Of a DNA stretch of 64,000 nucleotides, positions 3,005-64,000 are shown piece by piece (position 1 is the first letter of the stretch; every line of letters starts with the position of its first letter). A program made the translations under genes and the position numbers. Below the pieces are notes generated by a model. That model worked only from the letters and a program-made list of their open reading frames with translations. It had not been told where the DNA came from and did not search any database. This DNA is from a virus. The stretch spans positions 10,094-74,093 of IMG/VR virus record IMGVR_UViG_3300025141_000062. One strand, given 5' to 3'.

Positions 3005-4288
3005 ATGGCAACATATAAAGAAATCTCTTCTGCTGACATTAAGACAAGCAGATCAGTTTTAAATCAGCTAGTTGATATAATTCAAGAAGATATCTCAGGC
3101 TCAACAACTAGAAAAAAATATCAAGTATTCGTAACGGGTGGTGTAGGTCCTGGTGTGACTTCTTCACTGTTTCAGACAGTCTATGATCAAGACTATACGC
3201 TTCAGACGGCAAATCCTATCTTTGATATGACACTTGGGATATATTCTGGAAGCGGAATAGTTTCTGCTTCATCTACAGGTCAAGATAGTGCTGGCAAGCT
3301 ATTGTTTCCATCATCTTCTCTCATGATGAGAGAGAAGGTGAACGTATATAGACAATTTGCACAGCTTCTATTGGGAAATGCAACACATCAGTTCTCAACA
3401 CCCTTTTCAACATCTCAGCCGGCAGCAGATGATGATAAAATAGATGCAGCATTATTTCTAACTTTTAAGCGACTGTTTTCAAGAGACAAGATCAAGAGAG
3501 AGACATTTGCAATGAAGTTCTACCAGTCTGCATCAAGAGCACCAGGTGCAGGTGGTGGATTTAACCCTACACACATTAATAATGGTGTAACTTGGGGGCC
3601 TAATATAAACCTTGGAACTGTGTCTGGATCTGCAATCTATACAGATGTAGGATCTTCAACAGCAAAAGAAACATCTGTCGGAGGTGAGGTTGGAAATATT
3701 GTCGACTCATCAAACACAAGTAGAAATGTAGGGCTCCTATTCTATGATATGGGAATAGCAGTTCTTGATGTGGAGAGCGTAATATCTGGATCACAGCATG
3801 TAAGCGGAACAGTATCGGCAATGAATAGCGCATCAGGAAACGGTTATGCTGCAGGTCAGATTGTTATAGGAGATGTAAGAAAAAGCGGAAGAGGAACAGG
3901 GACACACAAAGCAAAATTTGTTCCAGATTTTATAGTATCTGGATCAATGGATGACGTCTTAGATCACTTTGCATCTGTAAGATTCCAATCAGGATCACTT
4001 ACGGCAATGACTTTTCAGAATGTTACAAATATTAATTCAACACTTGTATTTTGCAGAGCTACATCTGATGAGTTTAATTACTCATCAAATCCAACTTTTA
4101 CTGACGATACAGGAAGAATAAACTGCATAGACAGCGGAGAGGAAACTACTCAACGTACATTCTCATTTCCAACTACGATTGGACTATATGATGGAAGAAA
4201 TCAACTACTTGCTGTTGCAAAGCTTAGCAGGCCAGTAGAGAAGAATGACGAGAAGGATCTTACATTTAGAATTAGACTTGACTTCTAG
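3005..4288 (+). CDS. Baseplate/tail-collar-like virion protein
   Basis: 427 aa; C-terminal TTIGLYD..LLAVAKLSRPVEK..FRIRLDF tail-collar-type domain; S/G/T rich. Confidence 0.55.
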   Translation: MATYKEISSADIKTSRSVLNQLVDIIQEDISGSTTRKKYQVFVTGGVGPGVTSSLFQTVYDQDYTLQTANPIFDMTLGIYSGSGIVSASSTGQDSAGKLLFPSSSLMMREKVNVYRQFAQLLLGNATHQFSTPFSTSQPAADDDKIDAALFLTFKRLFSRDKIKRETFAMKFYQSASRAPGAGGGFNPTHINNGVTWGPNINLGTVSGSAIYTDVGSSTAKETSVGGEVGNIVDSSNTSRNVGLLFYDMGIAVLDVESVISGSQHVSGTVSAMNSASGNGYAAGQIVIGDVRKSGRGTGTHKAKFVPDFIVSGSMDDVLDHFASVRFQSGSLTAMTFQNVTNINSTLVFCRATSDEFNYSSNPTFTDDTGRINCIDSGEETTQRTFSFPTTIGLYDGRNQLLAVAKLSRPVEKNDEKDLTFRIRLDF

Positions 4289-4308
4289 ATCTATAGGGAG
4301 GTGGGCCA

Positions 4309-7300
4309 ATGTCTATCATTAAGATTACACCAGACCTGATTGAACTAGTTAGCCTAAAGACTCATCCTAAGGTAAAGTTTGTCTCATCATCAATAGGTGT
4401 TGTTAATACAGAGGTAACGTCCAGCTCAGGTATAGTAAGTCACTCTGGAACTCTAGGAGAGGTAAGCCTGCTCCCTAGGACTAATAGAGTGATAAAGTCA
4501 ACAAGGCAGTTTGATATCACATCTGCACTATTTAATGAAGACCAGCTAGAGTTAGCTATAAATTTAAAAAATGCTGTAACTTTAACAGAAGCAGGTGAGA
4601 CAGATATACAGTCGTATATGGGACATGCTACGCCCTGGCCACACTCTTCAACTGAAGGCTCTATTGACGGTGCCCCTGCATCAGAAGCATACGATCAAGG
4701 GTATATGAGAGCAGTCAATCAGGCAAAAAAGAGCTCAAAACAGCTAAAGACATTCCAGATATCAAGATTTAGACCGTCATTTCTTTTTGAAGATGAAGGA
4801 TTTACTAATCATGAACTACTTACTGCATCACTACCTGCAAAGACAAAAGGTGTAAAGAGCCATATAGAGAATGTGCTTTTAAAGAAATATAAGTCTCACT
4901 ACACTAATCCAAATTATTCATATACAAACTATCATTCATTAAATTTCTTTACATCGTCTCATACAAATACGCTTCACGGCCATAGCGTCGTATCAAGTTC
5001 TGTTCTAATATATCCATGTATGACATCATCAAATAGAACTGATCAAGGACCGCATCTCACAGGGACAACAAGGTTTACTGGAAGATACTGTCCAGAAGGT
5101 GCATTTACATTTGACTTTTATATAAACCCAAGATATTCAAATGATGGTCCAGTGGGACAGGGCGCTGGCGACTCAAATAATTCATTTAATGCAGGCACAA
5201 TATTCCATATGAGCTCTACATTTGCTGTATCGCTTATTTCAGGATCTAGTGTAGATGAGTTTGGTAAGTGTGACGGATATAGGCTCCTACTCCAGCTTTC
5301 TCACAGTGCAGGCTACCCTCCTTCAAGATTTACAATAACTGCATCTAGCAATAATCCTGTATATAATGGAAATCTTGCAAGATATAAGGATAGAGACTTT
5401 AGATATGCGTTTCTATCACCAGATAACTCTCTTCAAAGAAACAAGTGGCATCATGTTGCAATTAGGTGGGGTACCAAAAATATAAATGATGGAACGGGAT
5501 CGTTTTTTATAGATGGAAATGAAGTCTCACGCTTTTGCATACCTGAGACAAGCATAGCACAAACTGTATTTACACTAACTGATGATCACGCCGAAGACAA
5601 TAGGGTTAACAGCTATTTAAGGGCTGCAGGAAAGATAGACGCTGATTCTAATCAACCCATATCAGATCCAGATGCATTATTTATAGGAAACTTTTATGAA
5701 GGAAAAAATACAACTGGATCTAATGCAACTTCAATTAATAGATTTTTCAACTGGAAGGCACAAAATCTAGAGGGATTCTCACAGGGTCAAAATTCTGGAC
5801 AGCAAAAAGGTCTCCATATTGAAGATGGTGATCCAAAGTCTTATGCCTTTAATCATCCACTAAATGCCGAGGTTCATGATCTTAAAATTTACGCATCATA
5901 CAGGACGTCAGATCAAATACTAACAAGCTCTCGTCATGGACCTGAGAACTCTGATGATCTTTTATTTTATCTTCCGCCATTTTTTGTTAAAGAGGGCTTT
6001 GATAGAAGATTTTTTGGGACAGCAGTCCAGACAATTAAAAAGCATCAAGTTGCTCACGATCAGGCAAACGATTCATTTTTTGACACATATCTCTCAAGAC
6101 CGTTTAATGCAGGTCTTTCTATGACAGTTGACTCAACACTGATAAATCTTGAGAACTTTTGCAGAGACCTTGTTCAAGGTGTGTATCCGAGACTTTTATT
6201 CCTAACAGCTTCTGCAATATCTGATGTTGAGATGCAAACACAATATGACAATAAAGAGAAACCTTGGCGATTTCCAAATGGAAGCGTGTCTGCACCACAA
6301 AGAAGAGTTTCAGATCTTCTATTCTCAACTGCATCACTAGCAAAGAGATGCCTAACTATTCTTCCATGTGATAACGGTAAATTCCTTCCAAACTATTCAC
6401 TAATTCTATCTGGTGCAAACGATTCCAAGCCAACATCTGGCTCAGAGATGTCTCTATTTGTTGATGACTACGGTCACAGTGATATATCAAGCATAAGTCT
6501 TAAAAATTTATTTACTCAGACACCAACCGCTATGACACTTATTCCAGATGGTGGCAGCTCTGTTGACACAATAGTTGATACTTTAAACTACTATACTGGA
6601 ACAGGTGTTTCTGGACTATATGATAGCTGGAGAGGCTCATCAAGCGGCTTTGGCGACGGAGACATGTCAGATGAAAATACCGGCCCACTTGCAAGCCCAG
6701 ATAGGCCAAACGGTGCAATCTGCTTTGAGTCCACTAGCTCAATACCAAGATTTATGGTGTATCAGGCAACACAGGACTCATCTAGCAATGAGGTTGTGAT
6801 ATTTAATATTCCAAATTTATTCTATGGAAATAGAATTTCTCCAGGAACATTTAAACTGTCTGACAAAAATCTTTCTGGATCTAGAGGCAAGGTGTCAATG
6901 ACACTAAAAGATGATGGATTTGGAACACTGTACAGGGCTGATTCAATAACTGAAAATGCTAAGTTTAACTGTGTTGGAAATATATTTTATGAAGAGGGAC
7001 TTGTTTTAATAAAGTCTCCTCACCTTGTTCACTTTGGAAAGAGAGAATTTGAGATGGAGTTTAAAGGGGACCAGAATATTCATGTAATGTCTGTCAATGT
7101 TCCCTGTGAGCCAGGTCTTGTAAACAGCTCGTCTAATCCAGCGTTTAAGTCGCTATCTGCATCATTTGATGCAAATGACTATAATAACGAATTCGTCTAT
7201 ATCACGTCAGTATATCTTCATGATGATAACTTTAACGTCATTATGAAGGCCAATCTTGCACAACCAGTTGTCAAGAGAGAGTCAGACGAATTTTTATTTA

Positions 7301-7320
7301 GAATAAAGATGGATTTTTAA
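4309..7320 (+). CDS. Large virion protein with LamG/concanavalin-like domain; C-terminus paralogous to 3005..4288
   Basis: 1003 aa; FTFDFYINP...NKWHHVAIRW...FFIDG LamG pattern; C-terminal SSNP.F...KANLAQPVVK..FRIKMDF. Confidence 0.55.
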   Translation: MSIIKITPDLIELVSLKTHPKVKFVSSSIGVVNTEVTSSSGIVSHSGTLGEVSLLPRTNRVIKSTRQFDITSALFNEDQLELAINLKNAVTLTEAGETDIQSYMGHATPWPHSSTEGSIDGAPASEAYDQGYMRAVNQAKKSSKQLKTFQISRFRPSFLFEDEGFTNHELLTASLPAKTKGVKSHIENVLLKKYKSHYTNPNYSYTNYHSLNFFTSSHTNTLHGHSVVSSSVLIYPCMTSSNRTDQGPHLTGTTRFTGRYCPEGAFTFDFYINPRYSNDGPVGQGAGDSNNSFNAGTIFHMSSTFAVSLISGSSVDEFGKCDGYRLLLQLSHSAGYPPSRFTITASSNNPVYNGNLARYKDRDFRYAFLSPDNSLQRNKWHHVAIRWGTKNINDGTGSFFIDGNEVSRFCIPETSIAQTVFTLTDDHAEDNRVNSYLRAAGKIDADSNQPISDPDALFIGNFYEGKNTTGSNATSINRFFNWKAQNLEGFSQGQNSGQQKGLHIEDGDPKSYAFNHPLNAEVHDLKIYASYRTSDQILTSSRHGPENSDDLLFYLPPFFVKEGFDRRFFGTAVQTIKKHQVAHDQANDSFFDTYLSRPFNAGLSMTVDSTLINLENFCRDLVQGVYPRLLFLTASAISDVEMQTQYDNKEKPWRFPNGSVSAPQRRVSDLLFSTASLAKRCLTILPCDNGKFLPNYSLILSGANDSKPTSGSEMSLFVDDYGHSDISSISLKNLFTQTPTAMTLIPDGGSSVDTIVDTLNYYTGTGVSGLYDSWRGSSSGFGDGDMSDENTGPLASPDRPNGAICFESTSSIPRFMVYQATQDSSSNEVVIFNIPNLFYGNRISPGTFKLSDKNLSGSRGKVSMTLKDDGFGTLYRADSITENAKFNCVGNIFYEEGLVLIKSPHLVHFGKREFEMEFKGDQNIHVMSVNVPCEPGLVNSSSNPAFKSLSASFDANDYNNEFVYITSVYLHDDNFNVIMKANLAQPVVKRESDEFLFRIKMDF

Positions 7321-17844: not shown

Positions 17845-18455
17845 GCGATAAACTTCAATTGCTTACAGAGTGGATGCCACTTACGTATGATCCAAAAACT
17901 ATTAATGAATCCTTAGAGAAAAATGGAGGAAAGTTTCTTTTAAAGGGCGTCTTGCAAAAGTCAGACACTCTAAATCAAAATGGTAGAATTTATCCTCATG
18001 CAATTCTTGAAAGAGAAATTAGGAATTATCAAAAATTTATTAGAGAAAATAGGGCGCTAGGTGAATGTGACCATCCAGATTCCTCAGTTGTAGAGCTTAA
18101 AAATGCATCTCACATTGTAAGAGAGGCACACATGGATGGAGACGTTTGTGTGGGGACAGTTGAGCTTCTCGACACACCTAGTGGAAAGATACTTCAAAGC
18201 CTAGTTCAATCAGGTGTAACTTTGGGAATATCTTCAAGAGGTGTTGGGACTACAAAATCTCAAGGAGAGACGCAAATAGTCCAAGAAGACTTTCAGCTAA
18301 TTTGTTTCGATATGGTTTCTGAACCATCCACACCAGGTGCATTTATGCTTAGTGAAGGAAAAAATGTATCAAAAAAGGATCTAGATAACTTTTTTACTAA
18401 GAGTGATAAGGTTGATAGAATATTTAACGAAATACTATCATGGGGAGATGAGTAA
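17841..18455 (+). CDS. Prohead maturation protease (T4 gp21-like)
   Basis: NQNGRIYP, ALGECDHP, SH, LGISSRGVG, FDMVSEPSTPGA. Confidence 0.93.
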   Translation: MSDKLQLLTEWMPLTYDPKTINESLEKNGGKFLLKGVLQKSDTLNQNGRIYPHAILEREIRNYQKFIRENRALGECDHPDSSVVELKNASHIVREAHMDGDVCVGTVELLDTPSGKILQSLVQSGVTLGISSRGVGTTKSQGETQIVQEDFQLICFDMVSEPSTPGAFMLSEGKNVSKKDLDNFFTKSDKVDRIFNEILSWGDE

Positions 18456-18889
18456 TGTCGTATAATCAGCTAAAACCCGGTCCAAACTTTGTTCCAGCGT
18501 ATCAGCTTTCAGGAGTTCCCTATGTAACTTCAAGTGTTGGTGTAACAACAACACCTGTAGAGATAGAATTTCCCCAGGCTACGAGATTTTTTCAAGTTAT
18601 AAATACGGGTGATACAAGTGCGCACCTGAGAGTTGGATTTACTGCAAATGGTGTAAATGCAAATCCCACAACAAATGGACATTATTTTATACTTTCAGGT
18701 ACAAAATCAACTGAAAGGCTAGAGCTAAGGTGTAAATCTGTATTTATAAGAGCAGATGGGTCTCAAGTAGGAAGCTTCAGTCTAATAGCCGGCCTATCAG
18801 GTGTAGATGCAGGAGACTTTCCAATACTAACTGGTTCAATATCTGGATCTGGAAGAACAGCAGAGCCTAGATTTAAAGGAGTAGGGTGA
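18455..18889 (+). CDS. Hypothetical virion protein (beta-rich)
   Basis: 144 aa; TAATG coupling; YQLSGVPYVTSS and LTGSISGSG. Confidence 0.6.
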   Translation: MSYNQLKPGPNFVPAYQLSGVPYVTSSVGVTTTPVEIEFPQATRFFQVINTGDTSAHLRVGFTANGVNANPTTNGHYFILSGTKSTERLELRCKSVFIRADGSQVGSFSLIAGLSGVDAGDFPILTGSISGSGRTAEPRFKGVG

Positions 18890-22525: not shown

Positions 22526-24454
22526 ATGAGTAAGTCTTTTACGTTAAGCCAATTAACAGAAGGAATACGTCAACGTCACCTGGGTGCACACAACAAGCGT
22601 CTCGTTGAGAAGTGGTCACGTACCGGTCTTCTTAGAGGGCTTGATGGCCAGCATCGAGAGAACATGGCAGGCCTTCTTGAAAATCAGGCTGCACAGCTTC
22701 TTAGAGAAGCTAACTCTGTTGGAACAGGAGCCGGTGCAGGTACCGCCTCTGGAGACCTTCAGGGATTCACAAATATCGCGTTTCCAATCGTCCGTCGTGT
22801 TTTCGGTGGCTTGGTTGCAAATGAGCTAGTTTCAATTCAGCCAATGAGCCTTCCTTCCGGACTGCTATTCTATCTGGATTACACATATGGCTCAAGGGTC
22901 GGTGGTGACACAAACCTTGCCACAGGCGCTGCAGGAGCAGCTGATGCTCAGACCTATAAGATGGGTCAGTCAATCTATAACAACCCAGCAGGAAAGGGAG
23001 TACGCTCCGGATCACTTGCAGCAGGTGGGCAGTATGACCTTGTCGGAACTTCATTCTCCAAGGTTCACACATCCTCAGCCTCGATTACTGTTAAGGCTTC
23101 AGGTTCGTTTGGTGCTAACTCAACTCTTGGACAGGCTACTACCGCACACGCGACAGGTTCTGATGGAAAGCTACTTCAGTTTGACCCACAGATCACATCG
23201 CTTATTGAAGATGATCCCTCCAGAGATGGTCTAGGAACATTCCAGTTCGTTCTGTTTAATCTAAGCTCGCTTCCAGCAAGCACAGATCTTACAATGTACA
23301 AGGAAATTTCAATATTCAGTGCTGTTCCAGGCGCAGCAGCTCCATCAACAGCTAATAACGTTGGATATGGCGCAATTCCAGAGTCGATTCAGGGAGGAAA
23401 GAACATCCTCAACGTACGTCGTCTAAATCAGCTTGGAACTTGGGTTGGAGATACATTCACTTCAGATCCATTTGCAACCAGAAGCACAAGTAATGGTGTA
23501 CTTCTAACAGTAGTATCTGGAACAAGAGGCCGAGGAGGTGGCGCTGCCACACTTAACCTTACAGCTTCTGTTGTTATATCACCAACGCTTAGTGTTGAAA
23601 GCGACGGTTCAGCTCTAACGATTCCATCGTTTGAGTCCAACTTTAGCACATCTTCACCTTCACCGATCATCCCAGAGATCGACATCAAGATCGAGTCAAT
23701 CGCTGTTACAGCGGTAACCCGTAAGCTCCGTGCTCGCTGGTCACCAGAACTCGCTCAGGACCTGAACGCTTATCACAGCTTGGATGCTGAGGTTGAGCTT
23801 ACACAGATCCTATCCGAGCAGATTGCTCTTGAGATTGACAGAGAGATCCTAAATGATCTGCTATCTGAAGCAGCTGGTGCTAACTACTACTGGTCACGTA
23901 TGCCTGGTAAGTTTGTTAACAAGACAAACGGAACTGTTCAGGATAAGGCAAGCACACTGTCTGCTGGTCCCCAGTTCACAGGTACTGTCCGTGAGTGGTA
24001 CGAGACGCTTGTTGAGACAATTATTGATGTTGCAAATGAGATTCACAGGAAGACACTCCGTGGCTCAGCTAACTTCATCGTAACCTCACCAGATGTTGCT
24101 ACAATCTTCGAGGCATCAGTTCTTTACAAGCCGAACCTCAAGATTGACGGAGATGGACAGGTCGGTGCTCCATTCCAGCTTGGTGCTGCCAATATCGGCT
24201 CTCTAAGCAACCGATTCACGGTTTACAAGGATCCATATTTCCCACGGAATAAGGTTCTTGTTGGATACAAGGGTGGAAGCTATCTTGAAACAGGATATGT
24301 TTACGCTCCATATGTCCCGCTGATCGTTACACCTACTATCTTCCAGCCGGAAGACTTCACACCCCGTAAGGGAGTTATGACTCGCTACGGTAAGAAGATG
24401 GTTAGAGGTGACTTCTACGGTACAGTTACAGTTATGGATCTAAACGTCATATGA
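22526..24454 (+). CDS. Major capsid protein (T4 gp23-like)
   Basis: LLENQ, FPIVRRVF, VSIQPMSLPSGLLFYLD, TRKLRARWSPELAQDLNAYHSLDAEVEL, GYVYAPYVPL, FTPRKGVMTRYG; SD AGGAG. Confidence 0.96.
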   Translation: MSKSFTLSQLTEGIRQRHLGAHNKRLVEKWSRTGLLRGLDGQHRENMAGLLENQAAQLLREANSVGTGAGAGTASGDLQGFTNIAFPIVRRVFGGLVANELVSIQPMSLPSGLLFYLDYTYGSRVGGDTNLATGAAGAADAQTYKMGQSIYNNPAGKGVRSGSLAAGGQYDLVGTSFSKVHTSSASITVKASGSFGANSTLGQATTAHATGSDGKLLQFDPQITSLIEDDPSRDGLGTFQFVLFNLSSLPASTDLTMYKEISIFSAVPGAAAPSTANNVGYGAIPESIQGGKNILNVRRLNQLGTWVGDTFTSDPFATRSTSNGVLLTVVSGTRGRGGGAATLNLTASVVISPTLSVESDGSALTIPSFESNFSTSSPSPIIPEIDIKIESIAVTAVTRKLRARWSPELAQDLNAYHSLDAEVELTQILSEQIALEIDREILNDLLSEAAGANYYWSRMPGKFVNKTNGTVQDKASTLSAGPQFTGTVREWYETLVETIIDVANEIHRKTLRGSANFIVTSPDVATIFEASVLYKPNLKIDGDGQVGAPFQLGAANIGSLSNRFTVYKDPYFPRNKVLVGYKGGSYLETGYVYAPYVPLIVTPTIFQPEDFTPRKGVMTRYGKKMVRGDFYGTVTVMDLNVI

Positions 24455-24475
24455 TGTAAGATTTACATTGATCTC

Positions 24476-24507
24476 AAAGGGGCGGCTTTTTAGCCGTCCC
24501 TTTTTTT
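24476..24507 (+). terminator. Rho-independent terminator after MCP
   Basis: AAAGGGGCGGCT-loop-AGCCGTCCCTTT stem followed by T7. Confidence 0.85.
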
Positions 24508-24541
24508 ATTAACTGATTGAATCAGTTGGTTATTATCTAAT

Positions 24542-25420
24542 ATGATAATTTCACACAAGAATAGATTTGTATTTTTTAAACCTATGAAAGTTGCAGGATC
24601 AAGCTTAGAGGTTGCTTTAAGCAGATTTTGCGGAAAAGATGATATATTAACTGGTACAAATCACATAGCAGAAAATCTATCTAGTGAATATGAATATCCA
24701 GCTAGAAATAATATGATATCACAAAATCTGAAACGAGATGCTGCAATTGAGGCTATGAGGGCATCTGGAAATATCGACAAAGTCACAAAAGAAATGATTG
24801 ATGAAGGATTTATTGTACGCTTCCTAGAGCCAAGGTTTCATATGCACGCAACTCCGTTACAGGTTCAGCTATCAGAAGACATAGACACATCAAGCTATAG
24901 GCAGATAACAATAATAAGAAACCCCTGGGATATGATTGTTTCATTTTTTTGGTGGTCTTTCTATACTCTTCCAAACGGATATGTTGATAAAAATGGAAAC
25001 GTATATAAGAAAGATCAAGCATATAGGCTTTCACCGGCTAGAAATCCAGATATTTCACCAACAGAGAATGACACCATATCAGAACTTAGACTAAAGTTTG
25101 AGATATTTTGTCAAATGTCTGCTGATATGATAGGTCCATACGGATTAGAGAAAAATGTCAAAGTTGTTGACTGGTTTATTAATAGAAATTTAGAATACTA
25201 CGCCGATAGCATAGATCATATTTTAAGATTTGAATCAATTCAAGATGACTACAATGCTCTCTGCAAAGACCTGTCTCTAGATTCTTCACCACTCCCAAGA
25301 CTTAAGACATCTCAGAGAAAATTAAAGACACCCTATAGAGAATATTTTAATGACTGGACATACAATTACATAGAAAGCAGAGTTAGCCAGTGGAAAGAAA
25401 AATTTAAATATTCTTTCTAA
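24542..25420 (+). CDS. Sulfotransferase family protein (Sulfotransfer_2-like)
   Basis: MIISHKNRFVFFKPMKVAGSSLE (5'-PSB loop), IIRNPWDMIVSFFWW (3'-PB motif), ILRFESIQDD. Confidence 0.8.
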   Translation: MIISHKNRFVFFKPMKVAGSSLEVALSRFCGKDDILTGTNHIAENLSSEYEYPARNNMISQNLKRDAAIEAMRASGNIDKVTKEMIDEGFIVRFLEPRFHMHATPLQVQLSEDIDTSSYRQITIIRNPWDMIVSFFWWSFYTLPNGYVDKNGNVYKKDQAYRLSPARNPDISPTENDTISELRLKFEIFCQMSADMIGPYGLEKNVKVVDWFINRNLEYYADSIDHILRFESIQDDYNALCKDLSLDSSPLPRLKTSQRKLKTPYREYFNDWTYNYIESRVSQWKEKFKYSF

Positions 25421-25438
25421 CTTAGTGACTTGATAAGA

Positions 25439-25445
25439 ATACTTA
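25439..25445 (+). promoter_or_regulatory. Putative late promoter motif ATANTTA
   Basis: ATACTTA directly before a GC-rich leader. Confidence 0.55.
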
Positions 25446-25449
25446 CTGA

Positions 25450-25510: not shown

Positions 25511-25532
25511 ACCTATTAAAAGGGAGAAAATT

Positions 25533-25913: not shown

Positions 25914-25959
25914 TTCATACCGTTAAGATAGACATCTATCTTATAAGAGTAGACAGCTT

Positions 25960-25989
25960 AAAGCCCGCACTATGTGCGGGCTTTTCTTT
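25960..25989 (+). terminator. Rho-independent terminator
   Basis: AAAGCCCGCAC-TAT-GTGCGGGCTTT then TCTTT. Confidence 0.85.
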
Positions 25990-27431: not shown

Positions 27432-28607
27432 ATGGCAACTTTTTCAAATACAACTAGTCCTACACCGTTTGGATTTTTTGACGACGATACAGATTTTCAG
27501 CTCGAGGCTGACAATATAGTAACATTTGTCAAGAGAAAGATGGGTGATGATATCCTTAGTGTCGAGCTTACTAAGAAGCAGATCTGGGGAAACCTTGAAG
27601 AGTCCTGTCTCGAATATGGGTCAATTTTAAATCAGTATCAAGCTAAGTCACAGCTCATTCAATTTTTAGGAATGCCAACAGGAAGCCACCTTTCAGGATC
27701 AGAGCAGAAGTACCCTAGAGAGAATCTGGAGTATCTCATAAGATTTGCTGAACCATATGCTATGGAAGCAGGCGTCGGAGGATCCTATAATACAATATCG
27801 GGATCTATTCAGCTAGTTAAAGATCAGCAAGACTATGATATATACACAGATTTAAAAGACTCGCACGGAGGAATATTATTTCAGTCTGGAAGTAATTCTT
27901 CACCCAAGACAAAGCTTAAGATAAGCGAGGTCTTTCACTTTGGCCCAGAGGCTGCATATAGATTTTTTGATACAACTAGTGCAATTAACTATCTTAATAA
28001 TGAGTTCAGCTTTGAGTCATTCACACCAGAGACTATATTCTATGTTCTTCCAGTCTTTGAAGATATACTAAGAGCAGGCCAGTTAGACTTATCAAACAGG
28101 GTTAGACGATCTAACTATTCATATAAGATTCAAGGTACAAAAATAAGGATATATCCGAAACCATCTACCTCTGACCCTAAAAAGCTATTTATAAGAATTA
28201 TGTTTAGACCAGACCCACTCAATCCTGCGTATGAAGATGATACAATTCATGGTGTTTCCAATCTTTCAAATATTCCGTTTGGAAATCTGATATACGCTAG
28301 GATTAACAGCATAGGAAGACAGTGGATTAGACAGTATTCACTTGCACTAAGTAGAGAGCAGCTAGGGTTGATTAGGTCTAAATTTGGAAACATTCCTGTT
28401 CCGGGGTCTGATGTCACATTAAACGGATCAGACCTAATAACACAGGGAAGGGCAGATAGGGATGCACTTGTTACGCAGCTAAAGGAAATGCTTGACACGC
28501 TGACATATGATAAAATTATGGAGAATGCTGCTACACGCGCAGAATCTGTTCAAAAACAGCTTAGATTTTCACCAATGCCAAATGGCTTTACAATCTTTAT
28601 GGGATAA
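27432..28607 (+). CDS. Neck protein (T4 gp13-like)
   Basis: KRKMG..ILSVELT..Q, WIRQYSLALSREQLGLIRSKF..PG..VTLNG. Confidence 0.8.
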   Translation: MATFSNTTSPTPFGFFDDDTDFQLEADNIVTFVKRKMGDDILSVELTKKQIWGNLEESCLEYGSILNQYQAKSQLIQFLGMPTGSHLSGSEQKYPRENLEYLIRFAEPYAMEAGVGGSYNTISGSIQLVKDQQDYDIYTDLKDSHGGILFQSGSNSSPKTKLKISEVFHFGPEAAYRFFDTTSAINYLNNEFSFESFTPETIFYVLPVFEDILRAGQLDLSNRVRRSNYSYKIQGTKIRIYPKPSTSDPKKLFIRIMFRPDPLNPAYEDDTIHGVSNLSNIPFGNLIYARINSIGRQWIRQYSLALSREQLGLIRSKFGNIPVPGSDVTLNGSDLITQGRADRDALVTQLKEMLDTLTYDKIMENAATRAESVQKQLRFSPMPNGFTIFMG

Positions 28608-33824: not shown

Positions 33825-33862
33825 CTTATATTTAATTATTAGAAACTTTGGAGAAAAGAAGA

Positions 33863-36800
33863 ATGCCTGAACTGACATTCAAAAGCGCTGGTATCAGCGT
33901 AAGAGAAATTGATCTATCGCAGCCGACTCCTACAACACCAACTGGTGTTCCTGCAGGTATTATCGGAACATCAAATGAAGGCCCGGCTTTTGTCCCTGTG
34001 ACAGTTGCAAACTTTAGTGAATTCATATCTAGATTTGGTTCAACAGATGGTGAAAAATTTGGGCCTCTAGCAGTCAATGAGTGGCTTAAGAATGCATCTT
34101 CTGCAACATACATTAGAGTTCTAGGTGCTGGAGACGGAAAGAGAAGAAATACAAGCACAGGAAAAGTTACAAACGCTGGATTTGTAGCTGGTGCACAACA
34201 GGTCCAAGCAACTGGAATAGTTGCAGCAAATCCGTTTGCAAATACCGGAGGAGACACAGGAAACACATATTTTCTAGGCTGTTATATGTCTCAGTCGTCT
34301 AACTCCTCTGTATTTATAGATGCAGGAAATATAGATCATAAGCCGATAGTTAGAGGAGTCTTAATGGCACCCGATGGTGTTATATTAAGGCTCTCAAGCT
34401 CCTCGCCGACTGGTTCAAATCTTATGAATGCACCAGGTTCAACTGTAATTGGCAAAGAGGGCAACACTCTTATGCGAGGAGCAGTTACAGGGTCTGTAGA
34501 TCTTGCAAATGGAAACTTTGTCATGATGCTCAATGGCCACAAGGGAACAGCTGAGAATCCCAGAGTCATTACTGCATCGTTTGATGTCAATTCTCCTATG
34601 TATCTTCCAAACGTCTTTAACACAGATCCGTTTAGCATTCAAGAAGCAGGACACTATCTTTACAGCCACTATGACATCCACAGCTCTCAGGCAGTCGCTA
34701 CAGGCTCAGGCTTTATAGTTCAAAACTATCCAGGCCCTCATAGAATAAATCTTGGAGAGGGAGATCACGTACTTGAGCCTATTGCATTCCTAACAACAGG
34801 TGCCCTTGCTGGAGGAAGCTCAACTGTTCCAGACTATAGGTCATTTGAAGATAGATTCGCAACTGCAAAGTCTCCATATGTCATATCACAGGAGTTCGGC
34901 GGAAGCCCTTATAATCTATTTAAAGTTGAATCTTTATCAGATGGCTCAGCTTCAAACACTAGATTTAAAATATCAATAGAAAATATTGCAAAATCGAATT
35001 CTGATGCAAATCAATTTGGAAAATTTGACCTTGTAGTTAGAGATTTTTATGACAATGATTCAGAAAAGGTAGTTCTTGAGCAATTTAGAGGGCTTTCACT
35101 GGATAGGGATTCTGATAGATATTTTGCTAGAGTCATAGGTGATCAAAAGATCTATTTTGACTTCGACCAAAAATCAACTGCACAAAAGATGGTTGTAGAT
35201 GGTGATTTTAAAAATCAGTCAAGGTATATAAGAGTCAATGTATCTTCTGAGGTTGTTGCAGGATCTGTACCGGACAATGCACTACCACTAGGATTTAGAG
35301 GCCACTTCCATCTTGTTACATCTGGAACAGCTCCTTTAACAACCGTATTAGATGGATCCGGCGGTGGGGGTCCAAACACGCTGGCTGCTGACATGGCTTC
35401 AAATGTACTAAAGCGGTCAATCGTTCCGCCCGTTCCGTTTAGAGATAATTTAAATATTGGATTAGACCCTAAGAAAGTAGTGCAGCCAAGTCTTTACTGG
35501 GGATGTCAATTTACAAGAAAGGTAGACTTAGACCAGCCAAACAAGCCTGATCTTTTTGAAAGAAGCTTTGAAGGCTATGCCAAATATTTTCCAACATTTG
35601 CTGTCTCAAATCTAAATGTCTCTGTTGGAGATAATGAAGGAAAGGCAGACACATCTGCAAACCCACTTCTTGATGCAGACAGATTTAATAACAATAAGTT
35701 CACACTAGAAAACATTAAGGTGAGAACTGGATCTGATACTTACGCAGATCCGAAGGAATGGGTAACAGCTTCATATGTTAGAAATGGAGACATATCTGCA
35801 AATCCCGGACTTAAGACTAGAGCATTCTCAGTTAATGATCTTGGGGTCGTTGGAAATAGAAAATATGCCAAGTTTACATTCTTCCTTCAAGGAGGATTCG
35901 ATGGTACAAATATCTTCAATAAGGATAAGTCAAACCTTCTAGACAATGCAGCAAAAAGAGAGATGGATGATTCATCAAATCAGGGCGGAAAAGATGGTCC
36001 AACAGTTGCATCATATAGAAAGGCAATAGACATCATTGGTAGCAAGACAGATGCTGAGATAAAGCTACTTGCTATCCCAGGGATGAGAGACGAGTCGATA
36101 TCAGACTACGCAATAGATGCAGTTGAAAGTAGATTTGATTCAATGTATATAATGGATATTGAGGAATATGACACTGTCAACAAGATAGTTACATCATCAA
36201 TCCAAGATGTAGGTGTTTCAAATACAGTTACAAAGTTCAAAAATAGAGCACTAGACACATCATTTGCTGCTGCATACTTTCCAGATGTAGTTGTGCAGGA
36301 TCCGACGACATTAACAAATGTTAAGGTTCCGCCATCTGTTGCAGTTCTGGGCGCATTCTCTCTAAACGATACACTTGGACACCCATGGTTTGCTCCTGCA
36401 GGATTCTCTAGGGGGTCTCTGACGTCAGTAATACAGGCCTCAGTAGACCTTAACAGGGCAAATCTTGATGAGATCTATGATGCAGACATTAACCCACTCA
36501 CAGACTTCCCGGGAACAGGTGTAGTTGTTTGGGGTCAAAAGACACTCCTTGCAGCAGCTTCTGCTCTTGACAGGGTTAATGTTAGAAGGCTTCTAATTGA
36601 TATAAGAAGAAAGGTTAGAGCAATTGCAAATACGCTTCTATTCGAACCAAATAGAGAGTCAACATTAGAGAAGTTTTCCGGCCTGGTTAATCCAATCCTT
36701 CAGAAGATTCAGGAGCAAAGCGGGCTAGATAGATATAAGGTCATAATTGACACAACAACAACTACACAAGCAGATATTGAAAATAACACCATTAGAGGAA

Positions 36801-36880
36801 AGATCTTTGTACAGCCTACTCGAACAGCAGAGTTTGTTGCACTAGACTTTGTTGTCACTAATGCAGGTGCTATTGTCTAG
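33863..36880 (+). CDS. Tail sheath protein 2 (tandem paralogue)
   Basis: SAGISVREIDLS, GPAFVP, PWFAPAGFSRG, WGQKTL..SALDRVNVRRLL; ATG 33863; ATATTTA at 33828. Confidence 0.93.
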   Translation: MPELTFKSAGISVREIDLSQPTPTTPTGVPAGIIGTSNEGPAFVPVTVANFSEFISRFGSTDGEKFGPLAVNEWLKNASSATYIRVLGAGDGKRRNTSTGKVTNAGFVAGAQQVQATGIVAANPFANTGGDTGNTYFLGCYMSQSSNSSVFIDAGNIDHKPIVRGVLMAPDGVILRLSSSSPTGSNLMNAPGSTVIGKEGNTLMRGAVTGSVDLANGNFVMMLNGHKGTAENPRVITASFDVNSPMYLPNVFNTDPFSIQEAGHYLYSHYDIHSSQAVATGSGFIVQNYPGPHRINLGEGDHVLEPIAFLTTGALAGGSSTVPDYRSFEDRFATAKSPYVISQEFGGSPYNLFKVESLSDGSASNTRFKISIENIAKSNSDANQFGKFDLVVRDFYDNDSEKVVLEQFRGLSLDRDSDRYFARVIGDQKIYFDFDQKSTAQKMVVDGDFKNQSRYIRVNVSSEVVAGSVPDNALPLGFRGHFHLVTSGTAPLTTVLDGSGGGGPNTLAADMASNVLKRSIVPPVPFRDNLNIGLDPKKVVQPSLYWGCQFTRKVDLDQPNKPDLFERSFEGYAKYFPTFAVSNLNVSVGDNEGKADTSANPLLDADRFNNNKFTLENIKVRTGSDTYADPKEWVTASYVRNGDISANPGLKTRAFSVNDLGVVGNRKYAKFTFFLQGGFDGTNIFNKDKSNLLDNAAKREMDDSSNQGGKDGPTVASYRKAIDIIGSKTDAEIKLLAIPGMRDESISDYAIDAVESRFDSMYIMDIEEYDTVNKIVTSSIQDVGVSNTVTKFKNRALDTSFAAAYFPDVVVQDPTTLTNVKVPPSVAVLGAFSLNDTLGHPWFAPAGFSRGSLTSVIQASVDLNRANLDEIYDADINPLTDFPGTGVVVWGQKTLLAAASALDRVNVRRLLIDIRRKVRAIANTLLFEPNRESTLEKFSGLVNPILQKIQEQSGLDRYKVIIDTTTTTQADIENNTIRGKIFVQPTRTAEFVALDFVVTNAGAIV

Positions 36881-61644: not shown

Positions 61645-62074
61645 GTCTCCATACAATCTAATCCAAGAACACTTGTGGGAAGATCCATGGAAAATATTTG
61701 TTGCATGTATATTTTGCAATCTAACAAGAAGGGTAGATGCAGAGCCGTATATATGGAAATTTTTTGATGAATACCCTACACCTGAGATTGCAGCAAATGC
61801 TGACCCCATAGAGATACAAAAGATGATATCGCCGCTTGGGCTTTCTGAGAGACGATCTAGATCACTTGTTAAGATGTCCAATGATTATATTAATAAAGAC
61901 TGGAAGAGAAGCCCAGATGTTCTCTATGGCATCGGAAAATATGCTTCTGATGCCTATATGATATTTTGTTCAGGCAACTGGAAGAATGTACAGCCTAAAG
62001 ATCATGCTCTAAATGACTATCATAACTTTCTTATTAAAAAATTTGAAAATCGTGAAGAGGTATCTGGTTCATAA
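61622..62074 (+). CDS. MBD4-like HhH-GPD mismatch DNA glycosylase
   Basis: WTPPRSPYNLIQE.L..DPWK....IF.N.T, PLGL..RR, HhH LYGIGKYASDAY.IFC, catalytic PKDHAL; SD AGGAG favours ATG 61622. Confidence 0.88.
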   Translation: MMNWTPPRSPYNLIQEHLWEDPWKIFVACIFCNLTRRVDAEPYIWKFFDEYPTPEIAANADPIEIQKMISPLGLSERRSRSLVKMSNDYINKDWKRSPDVLYGIGKYASDAYMIFCSGNWKNVQPKDHALNDYHNFLIKKFENREEVSGS

Positions 62075-62126: not shown

Positions 62127-63431
62127 ATGACAGCAATTGCAGTTTTTGGACCTTCTGGGTCTAGCGGAGAGTTACAATTTGCTAATAGCTCTGGCGGATT
62201 TGATGCAGCTCAAGCATTTTGGGATGCAAGTAAGGGAAAGCTCTTTATATCTGGAAACCTTGAGGTTCTAGGGACAGAGACTGTAATAGACACACAGCAT
62301 CTTCATGTAGAAGATTCAATAATAGGTCTAGGGACGGGATCAGCAGGTCAGGGCGCCGCCGGTGATCGCGGGCTGATATTTCTAATATCAGGGGAAACAA
62401 ATCCCTCTCTTTACTGGGATGAGTCTGAGAGTGAGTTTAGATTTGCAAGGGTTTCAAATGTGCCGGGAGATAGTGCATTTGAAAATCCCACAAATGTAGC
62501 AGCAGGTGGATATCAAAATATTAGAGCAGGAATTATAAATACGGTCTCTGGTGCCATTTTTGACATATCACAAAGATCTCTTTCTGACATAGGGTCCGAC
62601 GTATTTCTTTATGCTGCCGGCTCAAGTGAAAAAAGATCAGTCTTTGGAGGAGACGTTGTAATAAGCGGGACACTATTTGGTGGGTCTCCCCTTAAGCTTG
62701 GGGGTGAGGTTGAATTTATTACAGATGACGGCGGAACAACTGATCTAAAAAATCCATCTGGAAGTGTCAAGGTTTTTGCAAGAGATGAGGTCAAAATTGG
62801 CTCTGATGATGGTCTTATTAGACTCATTGATCTTGGAGGGTCATCTGCTGGAAAGATATTCTTAACAGGCTCTAACACAAATACAAGTAGGCGACTTAAG
62901 TTCCTATCAAAAGGTCAAATTCAATTTCATGGACTAAACCCAAATGCAACATCTCCTGGGACTGATGTCTTCTTATTCCTGTCAGGCGCCATTGGCTCTA
63001 AGAGATCTGTCACTAGAGGGATCTCTCTTTTTGGAGGAGATGTCCTAGCATCAGGGTCACTTATAGTAGAATCTGGAATTTCAGGCTCTCTGACTAGGCT
63101 TGATAGCGGGATATCGTATCTTGCTCACGGAACTGATATAACGATAACTAGCGGATCTGCTGGTCAAGTTACAGTTACATCAAACGCCCAAGATCAGAGA
63201 AATAAAATAGTATATGAAGTTACAGCATCCCATGCAGCACAGGCAAGCCTTGTGATACCATCTTTAAATTTCTCAAATGTCAATGATGATCCAGATAGAA
63301 TAGATATCTTTGTAAATGGACAGCTGATGACGTCTGGCACTAGTAAAGATTACACAATTCCAAAATCTACATCAATATTATTTTATTTTAATTTAATATC
63401 TGATGACATCATTACAGTAAGAACGTACTAG
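62127..63431 (+). CDS. Tail fibre / surface virion protein
   Basis: ISGNLEVLGTETVIDTQHLHVEDSIIGLG fibre-type motif; repeated DVFL.....FGGDV..SG.L units; C-terminal DIFVNGQLM..G...DY. Confidence 0.6.
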   Translation: MTAIAVFGPSGSSGELQFANSSGGFDAAQAFWDASKGKLFISGNLEVLGTETVIDTQHLHVEDSIIGLGTGSAGQGAAGDRGLIFLISGETNPSLYWDESESEFRFARVSNVPGDSAFENPTNVAAGGYQNIRAGIINTVSGAIFDISQRSLSDIGSDVFLYAAGSSEKRSVFGGDVVISGTLFGGSPLKLGGEVEFITDDGGTTDLKNPSGSVKVFARDEVKIGSDDGLIRLIDLGGSSAGKIFLTGSNTNTSRRLKFLSKGQIQFHGLNPNATSPGTDVFLFLSGAIGSKRSVTRGISLFGGDVLASGSLIVESGISGSLTRLDSGISYLAHGTDITITSGSAGQVTVTSNAQDQRNKIVYEVTASHAAQASLVIPSLNFSNVNDDPDRIDIFVNGQLMTSGTSKDYTIPKSTSILFYFNLISDDIITVRTY

Positions 63432-63787: not shown

Positions 63788-63890
63788 GTTAAATTTTATT
63801 CCTTTGTTAAGTTTAGTCAAGTTAATTTATATTAGTTTGCGTTAAGGACTTGTTAGATTGTTAGTCTAATTCCACAATGTGTGGGTTAGA
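63788..63890 (+). repeat. GTTA(A/G) pentamer repeat tract with terminal hairpin
   Basis: GTTAA 63788; tandem GTTAA-GTTTA-GTCAA-GTTAA 63806-63825; GTTAA 63841; GTTAG 63852, 63860, 63885. Confidence 0.55.
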
Positions 63891-63924
63891 TAAGCCAAAA
63901 ATCTAAAACAAAGGAAAATATATT

Positions 63925-64000
63925 ATGGCTATTAAAACAAAAATTAGGGTAGGCCAGGTATCTGGCTCAATGCCCACAGATTCTGAATCTGCTGCAGCTA
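63925..64000 (+). CDS. 5' end of a probable virion protein (truncated)
   Basis: SD AAGGA; MAIKTKIRVGQVSGSMPTDSESAAA... Confidence 0.6.
   Translation, partial: MAIKTKIRVGQVSGSMPTDSESAAA

Follow-up and report, generated by a model that had tools for sequence, protein, structure and literature searches.

A conserved [ST][GA]S motif in exterior virion proteins of a marine jumbo phage clade and its possible role in O-glycosylation

Motif-bearing genes in the window

The window, i.e. the whole stretch of 64,000 nucleotides analyzed here, is part of a 74-kb contig that makes up approximately 21% of the genome of an uncultured marine jumbo phage, far-T4-like. The original prediction held that [S/T]-G-S tripeptides are concentrated in its surface virion proteins and, together with a sulfotransferase encoded behind the capsid gene, belong to a virion modification system. 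We scored the motif as [ST][GA]S, i.e. Ser/Thr-Gly/Ala-Ser. The relevant features are the following:

3005..4288, + strand: conserved 427-aa core virion-type protein (w3005); 6 SGS and 3 SAS, the densest carrier in the window
4309..7320, + strand: 1003-aa Laminin_G_3-containing protein (w4309); 10 [ST][GA]S vs 2.8 expected
18455..18889, + strand: 144-aa protein (w18455); LTGSISGS, two motifs, not significant alone
22526..24454, + strand: major capsid protein (MCP), T4 gp23-like; phrog_138, 5.6e-72
24476..24503, + strand: intrinsic terminator (12-bp stem and T run) between MCP and sulfotransferase
24542..25420, + strand: predicted Sulfotransfer_2-family sulfotransferase, 292 aa; PF03567, phrog_3347; accessory gene
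25960..25984, + strand: second intrinsic terminator, ending a cassette of the sulfotransferase and a 137-aa ORF
27432..28607, + strand: neck protein, T4 gp13-like (w27432); phrog_211, PDB gp13 1e-4
30561..33824, + strand: tail sheath paralogue 1, 1087 aa; phrog_23, PDB gp18 match spanning 900-1087
33848..36880, + strand: tail sheath paralogue 2, 1010 aa, 33% identical to paralogue 1
62127..63431, + strand: 434-aa fibre-like protein (w62127); 8 motifs vs 2.25 expected
63925..63999, + strand: start of an ORF cut by the window end; reads MAIKTKIRVGQVSGS

The densest carrier, w3005, shares a C-terminal domain of about 100 aa with w4309, and over 258 relatives are known that are roughly 60% identical to it. 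Its AF2 model (pLDDT 72) matched other folds only weakly (Z<5); the six best matches are all phage tail, baseplate or neck parts. A weak PHROG match relates w18455 to a distal tail protein. All six MCP motifs (RSGS, ASGS, ATGS, LTAS, TAS and SAS) lie within residues 73-346 and outside the gp23-alignable part; PDB gp23 matches span residues 340-622 only. The neck protein contains PTGSHLSGSE, ISGS and QSGS. Sheath 1 carries STGS, two LSGS, VSGS, VTGS, ITGS and two TAS at residues 182-672, with none in the gp18-like C-terminal domain, and sheath 2 has seven motifs (4 TGS, 2 TAS and 1 SAS) at residues 188-640. The fibre-like w62127 has 5 SGS, 2 TGS and 1 TAS, nearly all of them retained across four orthologues, and orthologues of the truncated last ORF are 880-890 aa long. 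Every motif occurrence quoted previously was found in the sequence, and all counts were correct.

The excess is order-specific and limited to exterior-type virion proteins

Motif counts were compared between 17 virion proteins, picked by annotation while ignoring the motif, and 13 replication/repair proteins. The virion set contained 59 motifs, where composition predicts 27.3 and local shuffles 28.4 (Poisson p ~1e-7); the replication/repair set contained 8 vs 7.4 expected. Thus, both the proposed enrichment over shuffled controls and the contrast between virion and non-virion proteins are borne out. Permuted tripeptides of the same composition occurred 30-36 times in the 17 virion proteins, and residue order matters: SGS was found 23 times, SSG 5 and GSS 8 times. 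Whole-protein shuffles gave 9 observed vs 1.77 expected for w3005, 10 vs 2.80 for w4309, 8 vs 2.25 for w62127, 4 vs 0.61 for the neck protein, 8 vs 2.87 and 7 vs 2.19 for sheaths 1 and 2, and 6 vs 2.06 for the MCP. With shuffling in blocks of 20 or 40 residues the motif-rich proteins stayed significant, with the exception of w18455 (p ~0.1).

The motif is absent from TerL, portal, tube, hub and w38647, and the Rad50-like protein and RNR each contain a single SAS and no other match. This agrees with the reported near-absence from terminase, portal, tape measure, Mre11-Rad50 and RNR; family searches with w38647, the supposed tape measure, gave no match. These counts confirm that the [ST][GA]S excess is real, order-specific and limited to exterior-type virion proteins.

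The motif occupies fixed sites in unrelated proteins

Alignment of orthologues revealed 20 positionally conserved motif sites in five proteins, vs 1-3 per permuted control. In w3005, S[GA]S at residues 31, 175, 207, 261, 312 and 329 is kept in 78-80 orthologues with G/A swaps, and every conserved site lies at a helix/strand boundary of the AF2 model. Three MCP sites (161, 210 and 346) are conserved across 77 orthologues, four sheath 1 sites across 27, and neck sites 83, 88 and 123 in 50, with S123/G124/S125 near-invariant. The neck PT[GA]S site is retained even in Microcystis phage Mel-JY01, at 31% identity.

Across the conserved sites, the first residue (position 0) is Ser or Thr in 94% and the second (position 1) Gly or Ala in 95%; the third (position 2) is mostly Ser (84%), with Thr in another 7%. 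Asp or Asn occurs in about 1%, and Ala freely swaps for Gly, a combination that is unusual for Asx/ST-turns and positive-phi glycine turns. Judged from these alignments, the pattern is hydroxyl-specific and not Asx/ST-turn-like. The flanks are hydrophobic on both sides rather than acidic, and the analogy with glycosaminoglycan attachment sites drawn earlier fails on this context.

In w3005, MCP, neck and sheath, sporadic sites did not outnumber permuted controls; in the giant fibre they were only about 1.5-fold commoner. The excess therefore sits in fixed sites, with no sign of selection for motif density. The suggested glycan shield would predict motif turnover instead and is not supported. 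Profile-profile comparison of the motif-bearing regions detected no homology between them (HHalign probabilities of at most 22% and mostly <7%), so the motif originated in folds that are unrelated to one another. Together, the alignments establish Phi-Phi-[ST]-[GA]-S-Phi (Phi, hydrophobic) as a short linear motif conserved in this phage and its clade. It marks virion proteins predicted to face outward, namely the insertion of the capsid protein, the gp13-like neck, the outer domains of the sheath and proteins resembling baseplate or fibre components.

Distribution across related and reference phages

The motif excess is conserved over a large clade, and a complete relative of 369 kb has it too. 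When 493 ORFs of the complete relative G001 were scanned without bias, fibre-like giants ranked highest together with the orthologues of w3005 and w4309, and in G006, the closest large relative, a 1257-aa fibre-like protein contains 24 motifs vs 3.4 expected. Among cultured phages, Flavobacterium phage immuto has the excess (Immutovirus, 53 vs 26), and Mel-JY01 and RM378 have it in part. Protein 214 of immuto carries a near-tandem, near-periodic run, TGSLSTSGSLGVTGS. No excess was detected in the tested virion proteins of T4, including fibres, sheath and Hoc (13 vs 23.5), or in those of cyanophage P-HM2 (24 vs 18.8); the motif is therefore not generic to such folds.

GT2 glycosyltransferase genes scored above the cut-off in the present lineage, Immutovirus and Mel-JY01, were sub-threshold in RM378 and were not found in T4 or P-HM2, although the contrast between lineages is confounded by phylogeny and is worth about one independent comparison. 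The nearest isolate is a Flavobacterium phage, which suggests a Bacteroidota host.

The sulfotransferase is an accessory gene

The direct Pfam match of the sulfotransferase to PF03567 is below the cut-off (E=1e-3, 19.7 vs 22 bits). The Sulfotransfer_2 assignment made earlier nevertheless holds, because the protein matches phrog_3347 'galactose-3-O-sulfotransferase' (4e-8) and many of its 625 homologues carry PF03567; by sequence it is a genuine member of this group. It contains KPMKVAGSS and IRNPWDMIVS, consistent with the PAPS 5'-PSB and 3'-PB motifs.

The proposed link to the motif did not survive. The cassette occupies a hypervariable island between MCP and neck genes, was found at 13 of 80 related loci and is absent behind the capsid gene in all five near-complete relatives, which keep the motif. 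MCP, neck and sheath orthologues have equal motif counts with or without it. A search for PAPS-synthesis genes yielded none, and APS kinase was not found in five sulfotransferase-bearing contigs. The gene is thus an accessory, terminator-flanked cassette outside the core system. Its substrate is most likely a sugar, possibly the virion glycan proposed below, in one sub-clade only.

Glycosyltransferase clusters in relatives

The original prediction correctly stated that no glycosyltransferase lies in the window, and none was found on the whole 74-kb contig either. The search for glycosyltransferase and nucleotide-sugar genes in relatives revealed large clusters. In 9 of 10 large relatives, genes for the synthesis and transfer of sugars form a cluster of 17-27 kb, among them the gene for a core enzyme in which GT-B and GT-A are fused; the same 9 have GT2 genes. 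The tenth contig extends only about 7.3 kb past its orthologue of w3005 in the direction in which the cluster lies in G001 and G006. In the two relatives mapped, the cluster lies upstream of the stretch matching our contig, so that here it would be beyond the contig 5′ end. The G006 cluster is on the same strand as, and about 11 kb upstream of, the most motif-rich fibre genes and includes a second Sulfotransfer_2-like gene; the G001 cluster includes UDP-sugar dehydrogenases. A Bac_transf priming enzyme was not found in three near-complete genomes.

Of 2,215 homologues of the fused enzyme (~640 aa), the 120 best share 60-80% identity with it. The enzyme joins a GT-B domain (Z ~20) to a GT-A half that in structure best matches SunS and ThuS, two peptide glycosyltransferases (Foldseek E 4.5e-11; VIA Z 15.3, rmsd 3.2 Å over 206 residues), and that has weak sequence matches to SunS and GmaR. 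The GT-A half also resembles chondroitin and heparosan synthases. Since these and teichoic-acid GT-A enzymes trail the best matches by just a few orders of magnitude, the fold does not reveal the acceptor. The fused-enzyme profile had no match in immuto or Mel-JY01, both motif-bearing.

A possible acceptor signal for O-glycosylation

We tentatively propose, with a probability of about 0.4, that the motif is the acceptor signal for phage-encoded O-glycosylation of the virion. The motif Ser/Thr would accept an O-glycan in the host cytoplasm from the clade's own soluble machinery, presumably the core fused enzyme with variable nucleotide-sugar and tailoring enzymes, encoded here beyond the contig 5′ end. 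The capsid-adjacent sulfotransferase would be an add-on that may sulfate the glycan in one sub-clade. Of the earlier interpretation, the real motif, its conservation in the clade and the glycosyltransferase clusters remain, and the sulfotransferase link, the glycosaminoglycan analogy, the shield and the PAPS genes are not supported.

Several observations count against glycosylation. The excess is in fixed sites only; hydrophobic flanks, secondary-structure junctions and near-tandem fibre runs also fit a structural turn; the fused-enzyme profile is blank in motif-bearing immuto and Mel-JY01; the contig lacks a glycosyltransferase; and glycosyltransferase clusters of this kind have been read as acting on the host O-antigen (PMC7029224).

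The motif might instead be purely structural, a never-modified strand-turn-strand or capping element of beta-rich exterior domains, with the glycan cluster and sulfotransferase acting elsewhere, e.g. on a different acceptor or, for superinfection exclusion, on the host envelope. This is somewhat less likely than glycosylation. It accommodates an excess confined to conserved columns (four of the five protein families tested gave no turnover signal), the helix/strand boundaries in w3005, the flanks on both sides, the near-periodic fibre runs, the uncorrelated sulfotransferase and the published reading of tail-fibre-adjacent clusters as host LPS modification (PMC7029224). It sits poorly with virion proteins of T4 and P-HM2, fibres, sheath and Hoc among them, that have no excess, with recurrence in regions of no detectable homology and with the near-exclusion of D/N alongside free Ala for Gly.

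A signal for a different role, such as another Ser/Thr modification (phosphorylation or similar) or docking of a common assembly factor or decoration protein, would equally explain why the motif recurs by convergence in exterior proteins that are unrelated, why its conservation is hydroxyl-specific and why it is restricted to certain lineages. We regard it as improbable: no candidate kinase or common partner was found within 74 kb, and the clade's large conserved glycan machinery would be left without an acceptor. A sulfated, glycosaminoglycan-like coat at Ser-Gly with the capsid-adjacent sulfotransferase as an integral part, as originally envisaged, is very improbable, since the genuine Sulfotransfer_2 relationship, the G001 dehydrogenases, the synthase-like GT-A half and the second sulfotransferase-like gene in the G006 cluster are set against a terminator-flanked cassette in a hypervariable island (13/80 loci, 0/5 near-complete motif-keeping relatives), hydrophobic instead of acidic flanks and no APS kinase in five contigs bearing the gene.

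Comparison with known systems

Glycosaminoglycan attachment sites consist of Ser-Gly with acidic neighbours. The present system likewise has Ser followed by Gly and a sulfotransferase of a sugar-sulfating family, but its flanks are hydrophobic, and the accessory sulfotransferase shows no correlation with the motif. ST-turn and beta-hairpin capping motifs similarly place small hydroxylated residues and Gly at strand/helix boundaries; they normally tolerate Asp/Asn and show no lineage specificity, unlike the motif described here, with D/N at about 1% and T4 without excess. SunS and ThuS (glycocin S/O-glycosyltransferases) and GmaR (Listeria flagellin O-GlcNAc transferase) act in the cytoplasm, where they glycosylate protein Ser/Cys and use no lipid carrier. 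In predicted structure, the GT-A half of the phage enzyme comes closest to SunS and ThuS; unlike all three, the phage enzyme has a fused N-terminal GT-B domain, and its gene is off this contig.

Pelagimyophages and cyanomyophages have a glycosyltransferase-rich 'host recognition cluster' (PMC7029224), and moraphages, with predicted Bacteroidota hosts, have four core glycosyltransferase orthogroups (PMC12619734). Like the present clade, both groups comprise large T4-like phages from marine or aquatic settings in which glycan clusters lie beside tail-fibre genes. Host O-chain or DNA modification was proposed for them, or virion glycosylation merely as an option (PMC7029224, PMC12619734). As far as the pelagimyophage and moraphage accounts go, they describe no virion-protein motif, whereas the present clade has one.

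Mycobacteriophage virions are glycosylated by phage-encoded glycosyltransferases (Freeman et al. 2023, as cited in PMC12619734), at the C-termini of capsid and tail-tube subunits (as cited in PMC12619734). In both cases phage-encoded, presumably cytoplasmic glycosyltransferases would decorate the phage's own capsid and tail proteins. No dispersed tripeptide motif is described for mycobacteriophages in that citing source, whereas here about 50 internal conserved sites are spread over many exterior proteins, and the sugar-synthesis cluster of the present clade appears much larger.

Gene content of the contig

The window comprises bases 10094-74093 of a 74,093-bp IMG/VR virus contig, and all its genes lie on the + strand. 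CheckV puts the contig at 21% completeness, and the genome should therefore measure roughly 350 kb. PHROG, Pfam and PDB sequence matches revealed a T4-superfamily structural module consisting of TerL, a gp20-like portal, a gp21-like protease, a gp23-like MCP, a gp13-like neck protein and, for the tail, two sheath paralogues of ~1000 aa, a gp19-like tube and a baseplate hub. The gp23-, gp20-, gp21-, gp13-, gp18- and gp19-like proteins follow the conserved order of a T4-superfamily virion module, with PDB sequence matches to T4 gp23, gp13 and gp18. Replication genes come after the structural module (Rad50-like, primase, RuvC, Pol A, gp32, RecA, 5'-3' exonuclease, DnaB and RNR). By MCP identity (~47-48%), Flavobacterium phage immuto and Microcystis phage Mel-JY01 come closest among isolates, and no isolated phage matched the contig at the DNA level. 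IMG/VR holds hundreds of related contigs, some of 250-370 kb. The sheath paralogues (30561-36880, +) stand in tandem, are 33% identical over their full length and are both kept in a complete relative, G001.

Motif enrichment in virion proteins

The original prediction held that [S/T]-G-S tripeptides are concentrated in surface virion proteins, and every occurrence it listed is present in the sequence. We counted the motif [ST][GA]S (Ser/Thr-Gly/Ala-Ser) in each protein and compared it with composition shuffles.

Motif carriers of the window, with motif counts observed and expected from composition shuffles
From 3005 (+), 427-aa protein, w3005: 9 observed, 1.77 expected
From 4309 (+), 1003-aa protein, w4309: 10 observed, 2.80 expected
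22526-24454 (+), MCP: 6 observed, 2.06 expected
27432-28607 (+), neck protein: 4 observed, 0.61 expected
30561-33824 (+), sheath 1: 8 observed, 2.87 expected
33848-36880 (+), sheath 2: 7 observed, 2.19 expected
From 62127 (+), 434-aa fibre-like protein, w62127: 8 observed, 2.25 expected

To guard against circularity, a pool of 17 virion proteins was picked by annotation, with the motif-poor portal, tube, hub and three large tail proteins included. This pool contained 59 motifs where 27.3-28.4 were expected, and each of four permuted tripeptide classes occurred 30-36 times. In contrast, 13 replication proteins contained 8 motifs against 7.4 expected. The predicted enrichment over shuffled controls was thus borne out, and the motif is enriched in the proteins presumed to be substrates but not in the rest, as an O-glycosylation sequon should be. 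Residue order matters to the signal: among the eight flagged proteins, SGS occurred 23 times versus 5 for SSG and 8 for GSS, and TGS 14 times versus 3-7 for each permuted form. No other tripeptide was as enriched in these proteins as SGS, TGS and TAS, a ranking that is partly circular as the proteins were picked by motif.

Local composition was rejected as the cause, since the excess survives shuffling within blocks of 20 or 40 residues. A DNA-level signal was rejected as well. The codons TCN-GGA-TCN contain GATC, which was found in 24 of 46 motifs versus ~36% by codon usage and in 41% of all Gly-Ser pairs; overall, GATC is not unusual (336 occurrences versus 363 in a Markov expectation).

The motif in relatives and T4-like controls

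G001 is a complete genome of 369,475 bp with direct terminal repeats, and its 493 crude ORFs were scanned without prior labels; gene calls in all relatives are simple longest-ORF calls. The top ranks held three fibre-like giants (13 motifs vs 1.95 expected, 15 vs 2.4 and 23 vs 7.5), a 331-aa protein from the interval between MCP and neck genes (9 vs 1.9), the w3005 and w4309 orthologues, and a 1445-aa homologue of the first, truncated ORF on the window contig. In G006, the closest large relative (125 kb; orthologues of w3005 and of w2277, the ORF starting at 2277, are 77-79% identical), a fibre-like protein of 1257 aa has 24 motifs versus 3.4 expected, and its 12 orthologues have 14-23.

A set of 29 T4 proteins, nearly all virion parts and including the fibres gp34-37, gp12, Hoc, gp18, gp23 and the baseplate, contained 13 motifs versus 23.5 expected. 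The T4-like cyanophage P-HM2 had 24 versus 18.8, with permuted controls at 21-35. These counts reject the motif as a generic trait of T4-like exterior proteins. Among far-T4 isolates, immuto had 53 motifs versus 26 overall, with 13 versus 1.75 in a 373-aa fibre-like protein, protein 214, and 8 versus 2.6 in the sheath; Mel-JY01 had 4 versus 0.58 in the neck and 7 versus 1.97 in the sheath. Rhodothermus phage RM378 showed a mild excess (14 vs 6.4), yet no GT2 gene above the cut-off. Downstream of its capsid gene lies a gene annotated as similar to UDP-galactopyranose mutase (L202:15773-16924).

Conservation and structural context of the sites

Alignments of 27-78 orthologues, which are phylogenetically non-independent, were used for all proteins except sheath 2, for which five sequences were aligned. 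The excess over permuted tripeptides sits wholly in columns where half or more of the sequences show the motif: six in w3005, three in the MCP, three in the neck protein and four in each sheath, as compared with 0-1 per protein for each permuted control. In w3005, MCP, neck and sheath, columns with the motif in <10% of sequences were no commoner than controls, and we saw no selection on motif density through turnover. The giant fibre had 15 conserved columns versus 1-2 for controls and a modest, ~1.5-fold excess of sporadic columns (31 vs 14-24).

At 16 conserved sites in four proteins, the first position is S in 65%, T in 29%, D in ~1% and N in <1%; the second is G in 70% and A in 25%; the third is S in 84% and T in 7%. 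In these alignments, the scarcity of D and N would argue against a generic Asx/ST-turn and is compatible with a specific structural role. The context throughout is hydrophobic-hydrophobic-[ST]-[GA]-S-hydrophobic, with mostly I/V/L/F/M at positions -2, -1 and +1. The original prediction had likened the motif to the Ser-Gly attachment site of eukaryotic glycosaminoglycans, an analogy that fails here, as hydrophobic residues stand where acidic ones would be expected nearby.

We also searched for common ancestry of the motif-rich regions. Profile-profile comparison (HHalign) of w3005, the MCP insertion, the N-terminal part of the neck protein, two sheath segments and three fibre segments gave no homology (best probability 22%), and in an all-against-all BLAST only the sheath pair and the C-terminal domain of w3005 and w4309 shared similarity. 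A shared proliferated domain or paralogy as the source of the motif thus found no support. The lack of homology between these regions, together with the fixed columns, indicates that the motif is old, fixed and arose in unrelated folds. It is neither a domain signature nor a rapidly turning-over shield.

The AF2 model of w3005, built from 70 sequences, is of moderate confidence (pLDDT 72, pTM 0.68). It places every conserved site at the boundary of a secondary-structure element, and two sites adjoin low-confidence loops. For this fold there was no sequence match in the PDB, Foldseek found nothing at E<=1e-3 and VIA wide gave Z<5; the top six of these weak structural matches (Z 4.5-4.9) all come from phage tails, baseplates, necks or fibre adaptors. 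Motifs of the MCP and the sheath lie outside the segments aligning to T4 gp23 and gp18, and by analogy with T4 these regions are probably outward insertions.

Glycosyltransferases in large relatives

As the original prediction stated, the window has no glycosyltransferase, nor has the rest of the 74-kb contig (~21% of the genome). Its proposal to look for such genes elsewhere in the genome was followed up in relatives: GT2 genes are present in nine of ten large relatives, G006 included. The contig of the tenth stops ~7.3 kb past its orthologue of w3005, in the direction in which G001 and G006 have their cluster.

The glycan cluster of G001 spans ~17 kb and encodes a 636-aa GT2 protein, one further GT2, a methyltransferase and three GT1-like genes, along with a PseB/PglF-type dehydratase, a DegT aminotransferase, a GNAT and two UDP-sugar dehydrogenases. 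Directly after it stands an NAD salvage pair, an NMNAT-NUDIX fusion and NAMPT (L176:14708-17274). The ~27-kb cluster of G006 shares the large GT with G001 and also has GT2 and GT1/GT4 genes, a GDP-mannose 4,6-dehydratase, a nucleotidyltransferase, a kinase, a methyltransferase and a NodU/CmcH-type carbamoyltransferase (L204:8988-10697), which suggests carbamoylated sugars. G006 is colinear with the window contig, and its cluster lies ~16-43 kb upstream of the match to the contig 5' end on the same strand; in between are ~11 kb of conserved genes, followed by the most motif-rich fibre genes.

The large GT, a fused protein of ~640 aa, is a core gene of the clade, with 60-80% identity in the best 120 of 2,215 homologues. 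Its AF2 model (pLDDT 90) shows an N-terminal GT-B domain (Z ~20 to GT4-type enzymes) fused to a GT-A domain. In structure, the GT-A half matches the peptide glycosyltransferases SunS and ThuS best, with chondroitin, heparosan and teichoic-acid enzymes close behind. A search limited to priming enzymes of the Bac_transf type found none in G001-G003, G006 or immuto. The fused-GT profile, searched without a positive control, had no match in immuto, Mel-JY01, RM378, P-HM2 or T4. For 'moraphages' infecting Bacteroidota, a published study describes four core GT orthogroups and names DNA, host and virion as targets, choosing none (PMC12619734).

The sulfotransferase and the MCP-neck interval

The following features lie between the MCP and neck genes:
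24455-27431, MCP-neck interval
From 24542 (+), sulfotransferase, w24542
26049-27281 (+), 410-aa tubulin/FtsZ-like protein (Pfam Tubulin 5e-5, below cut-off), with a terminator ahead

By sequence similarity w24542 belongs to the Sulfotransfer_2 family. It scores 19.7 bits (E 1e-3) against Pfam PF03567, just under the 22-bit cut-off, and 4e-8 against phrog_3347 (galactose-3-O-sulfotransferase); many of its 625 homologues down to E 1e-17 have precomputed PF03567, and two are named 'sulfotransferase family 2 domain-containing protein'. In the translation, residues 13-21 (KPMKVAGSS) and 125-134 (IRNPWDMIVS) fit both PAPS-binding loops; we take them to be the 5'-PSB (PKxGxS/T-like) and the 3'-PB (RxPxxRxxS-like), respectively. 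A sequence search of the PDB gave chance-level matches only. A second, distant Sulfotransfer_2-like gene lies in the G006 glycan cluster (E 2.9e-4; 18% identical to w24542, with the IRNPxD..S motif in common).

The original prediction joined this gene to the motif in one virion modification system. We found no such correlation: mean motif counts with and without the sulfotransferase were 3.0 versus 2.6 in the neck, 1.8 versus 2.8 in the MCP and 4.7 versus 4.1 in sheath 1. Of 80 loci, 13 have the gene, and five near-complete relatives all lack it. The stretch between MCP and neck genes is hypervariable, measuring 96 bp to 7.5 kb across 53 relatives and about 13 kb in G001. Behind the MCP, w24542 comes after a strong terminator and shares a cassette with a 137-aa ORF, closed by a second terminator. 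APS kinase, needed for PAPS synthesis, was absent from five sulfotransferase-bearing contigs, the window's included, all of which are fragments. The sparse occurrence of w24542, the hypervariable island, the terminator cassette, the independence from the motif and the absence of APS kinase mark it as a moron-like accessory gene belonging to one sub-clade, with carbohydrate sulfotransfer from PAPS as its predicted activity.

Across loci L002-L081 the interval is a hypervariable cargo island, which in G001 also carries motif-rich small proteins. The tubulin/FtsZ-like protein has homologues in ~9 of 80 related loci, and L065 and L066 have a second MCP-like gene in the island.

Interpretation of the motif

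We consider it possible, with a probability of roughly 40%, that the motif marks O-glycosylation of the virion. Several observations argue for a modification sequon: the motif is confined to exterior proteins and specific in order, and conservation is specific for the hydroxyl residue while G and A exchange freely; it converged in unrelated folds and is restricted to lineages in parallel with GT2 presence; and a large, conserved and apparently soluble glycan machinery lies beside the fibre genes.

A purely structural motif is somewhat less likely in our view, with the near-absence of D and N at the first position speaking against a generic turn. A structural role would fit the fixed positions with hardly any turnover, the hydrophobic flanks and junction sites, and the near-periodic motif runs in fibres. 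In its favour, too, modification is deduced from sequence in place of chemistry, the lineage contrast amounts to roughly one independent comparison, and the fused-GT profile detected no homologue in immuto or Mel-JY01. Moreover, clusters of this kind have been read as host O-chain modification in published work (PMC7029224). A signal of some other kind is improbable as the meaning of the motif, and the sulfated, glycosaminoglycan-like coat first proposed, with neither the flanks nor the sulfotransferase distribution behind it, highly so.

Under O-glycosylation, a tentative wider model is that a widespread marine, probably Bacteroidota-infecting jumbo-phage clade and the cultured Immutovirus coat the whole particle exterior by phage-encoded, lipid-carrier-independent O-glycosylation reading the sequon Phi-[ST]-[GA]-S-Phi, Phi being a hydrophobic residue. 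The coat would cover the capsid insertion, neck, sheath, baseplate periphery and fibres, and the glycan would vary between lineages, tailored in some by sulfo-, carbamoyl- and methyltransferases. If so, phage virion glycosylation would have its first defined acceptor motif, and abundant marine phages would themselves build a sugar coat over capsid, neck, sheath and fibres. Such a coat could influence how they adsorb, stick to marine polymers, are grazed and are recognised by host defences. The large GT clusters of marine T4-like phages, now described as host-surface modification genes, would then need a new reading. Since the same enrichment occurs in the cultured phages vB_FspM_immuto and Mel-JY01, the question is directly testable. 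Even a structural motif would help, as a lineage-specific marker, to pick out exterior virion proteins from otherwise unannotatable ORFs.

Other genes and a candidate promoter

The sequence ATAYTTA, a candidate late promoter, stands 15-40 nt ahead of many structural-gene starts (e.g. 2251, 25439, 26017, 27394, 33828, 36897, 37428, 38617) and occurs 25 times on the + strand of the window versus 12 on the - strand. Ahead of glycan genes it was uninformative, with four coding-strand copies in the G006 cluster and one in that of G001. Further genes of the contig are:
59332-61301 (+), between RNR and the fibre-like gene: ClpP-like protease, Amidase_2 + PG_binding_1 endolysin-like protein and 4HBT thioesterase
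61613-62074 (+), HhH-GPD DNA glycosylase-like protein of 153 aa with C-terminal ...VSGS
L082:5282-10165, in the contig part upstream of the window: 1627-aa protein with an N-terminal Hint/intein-like domain (PT-HINT 1.9e-8), merely 21-29% identical to its counterparts in G001 and G006
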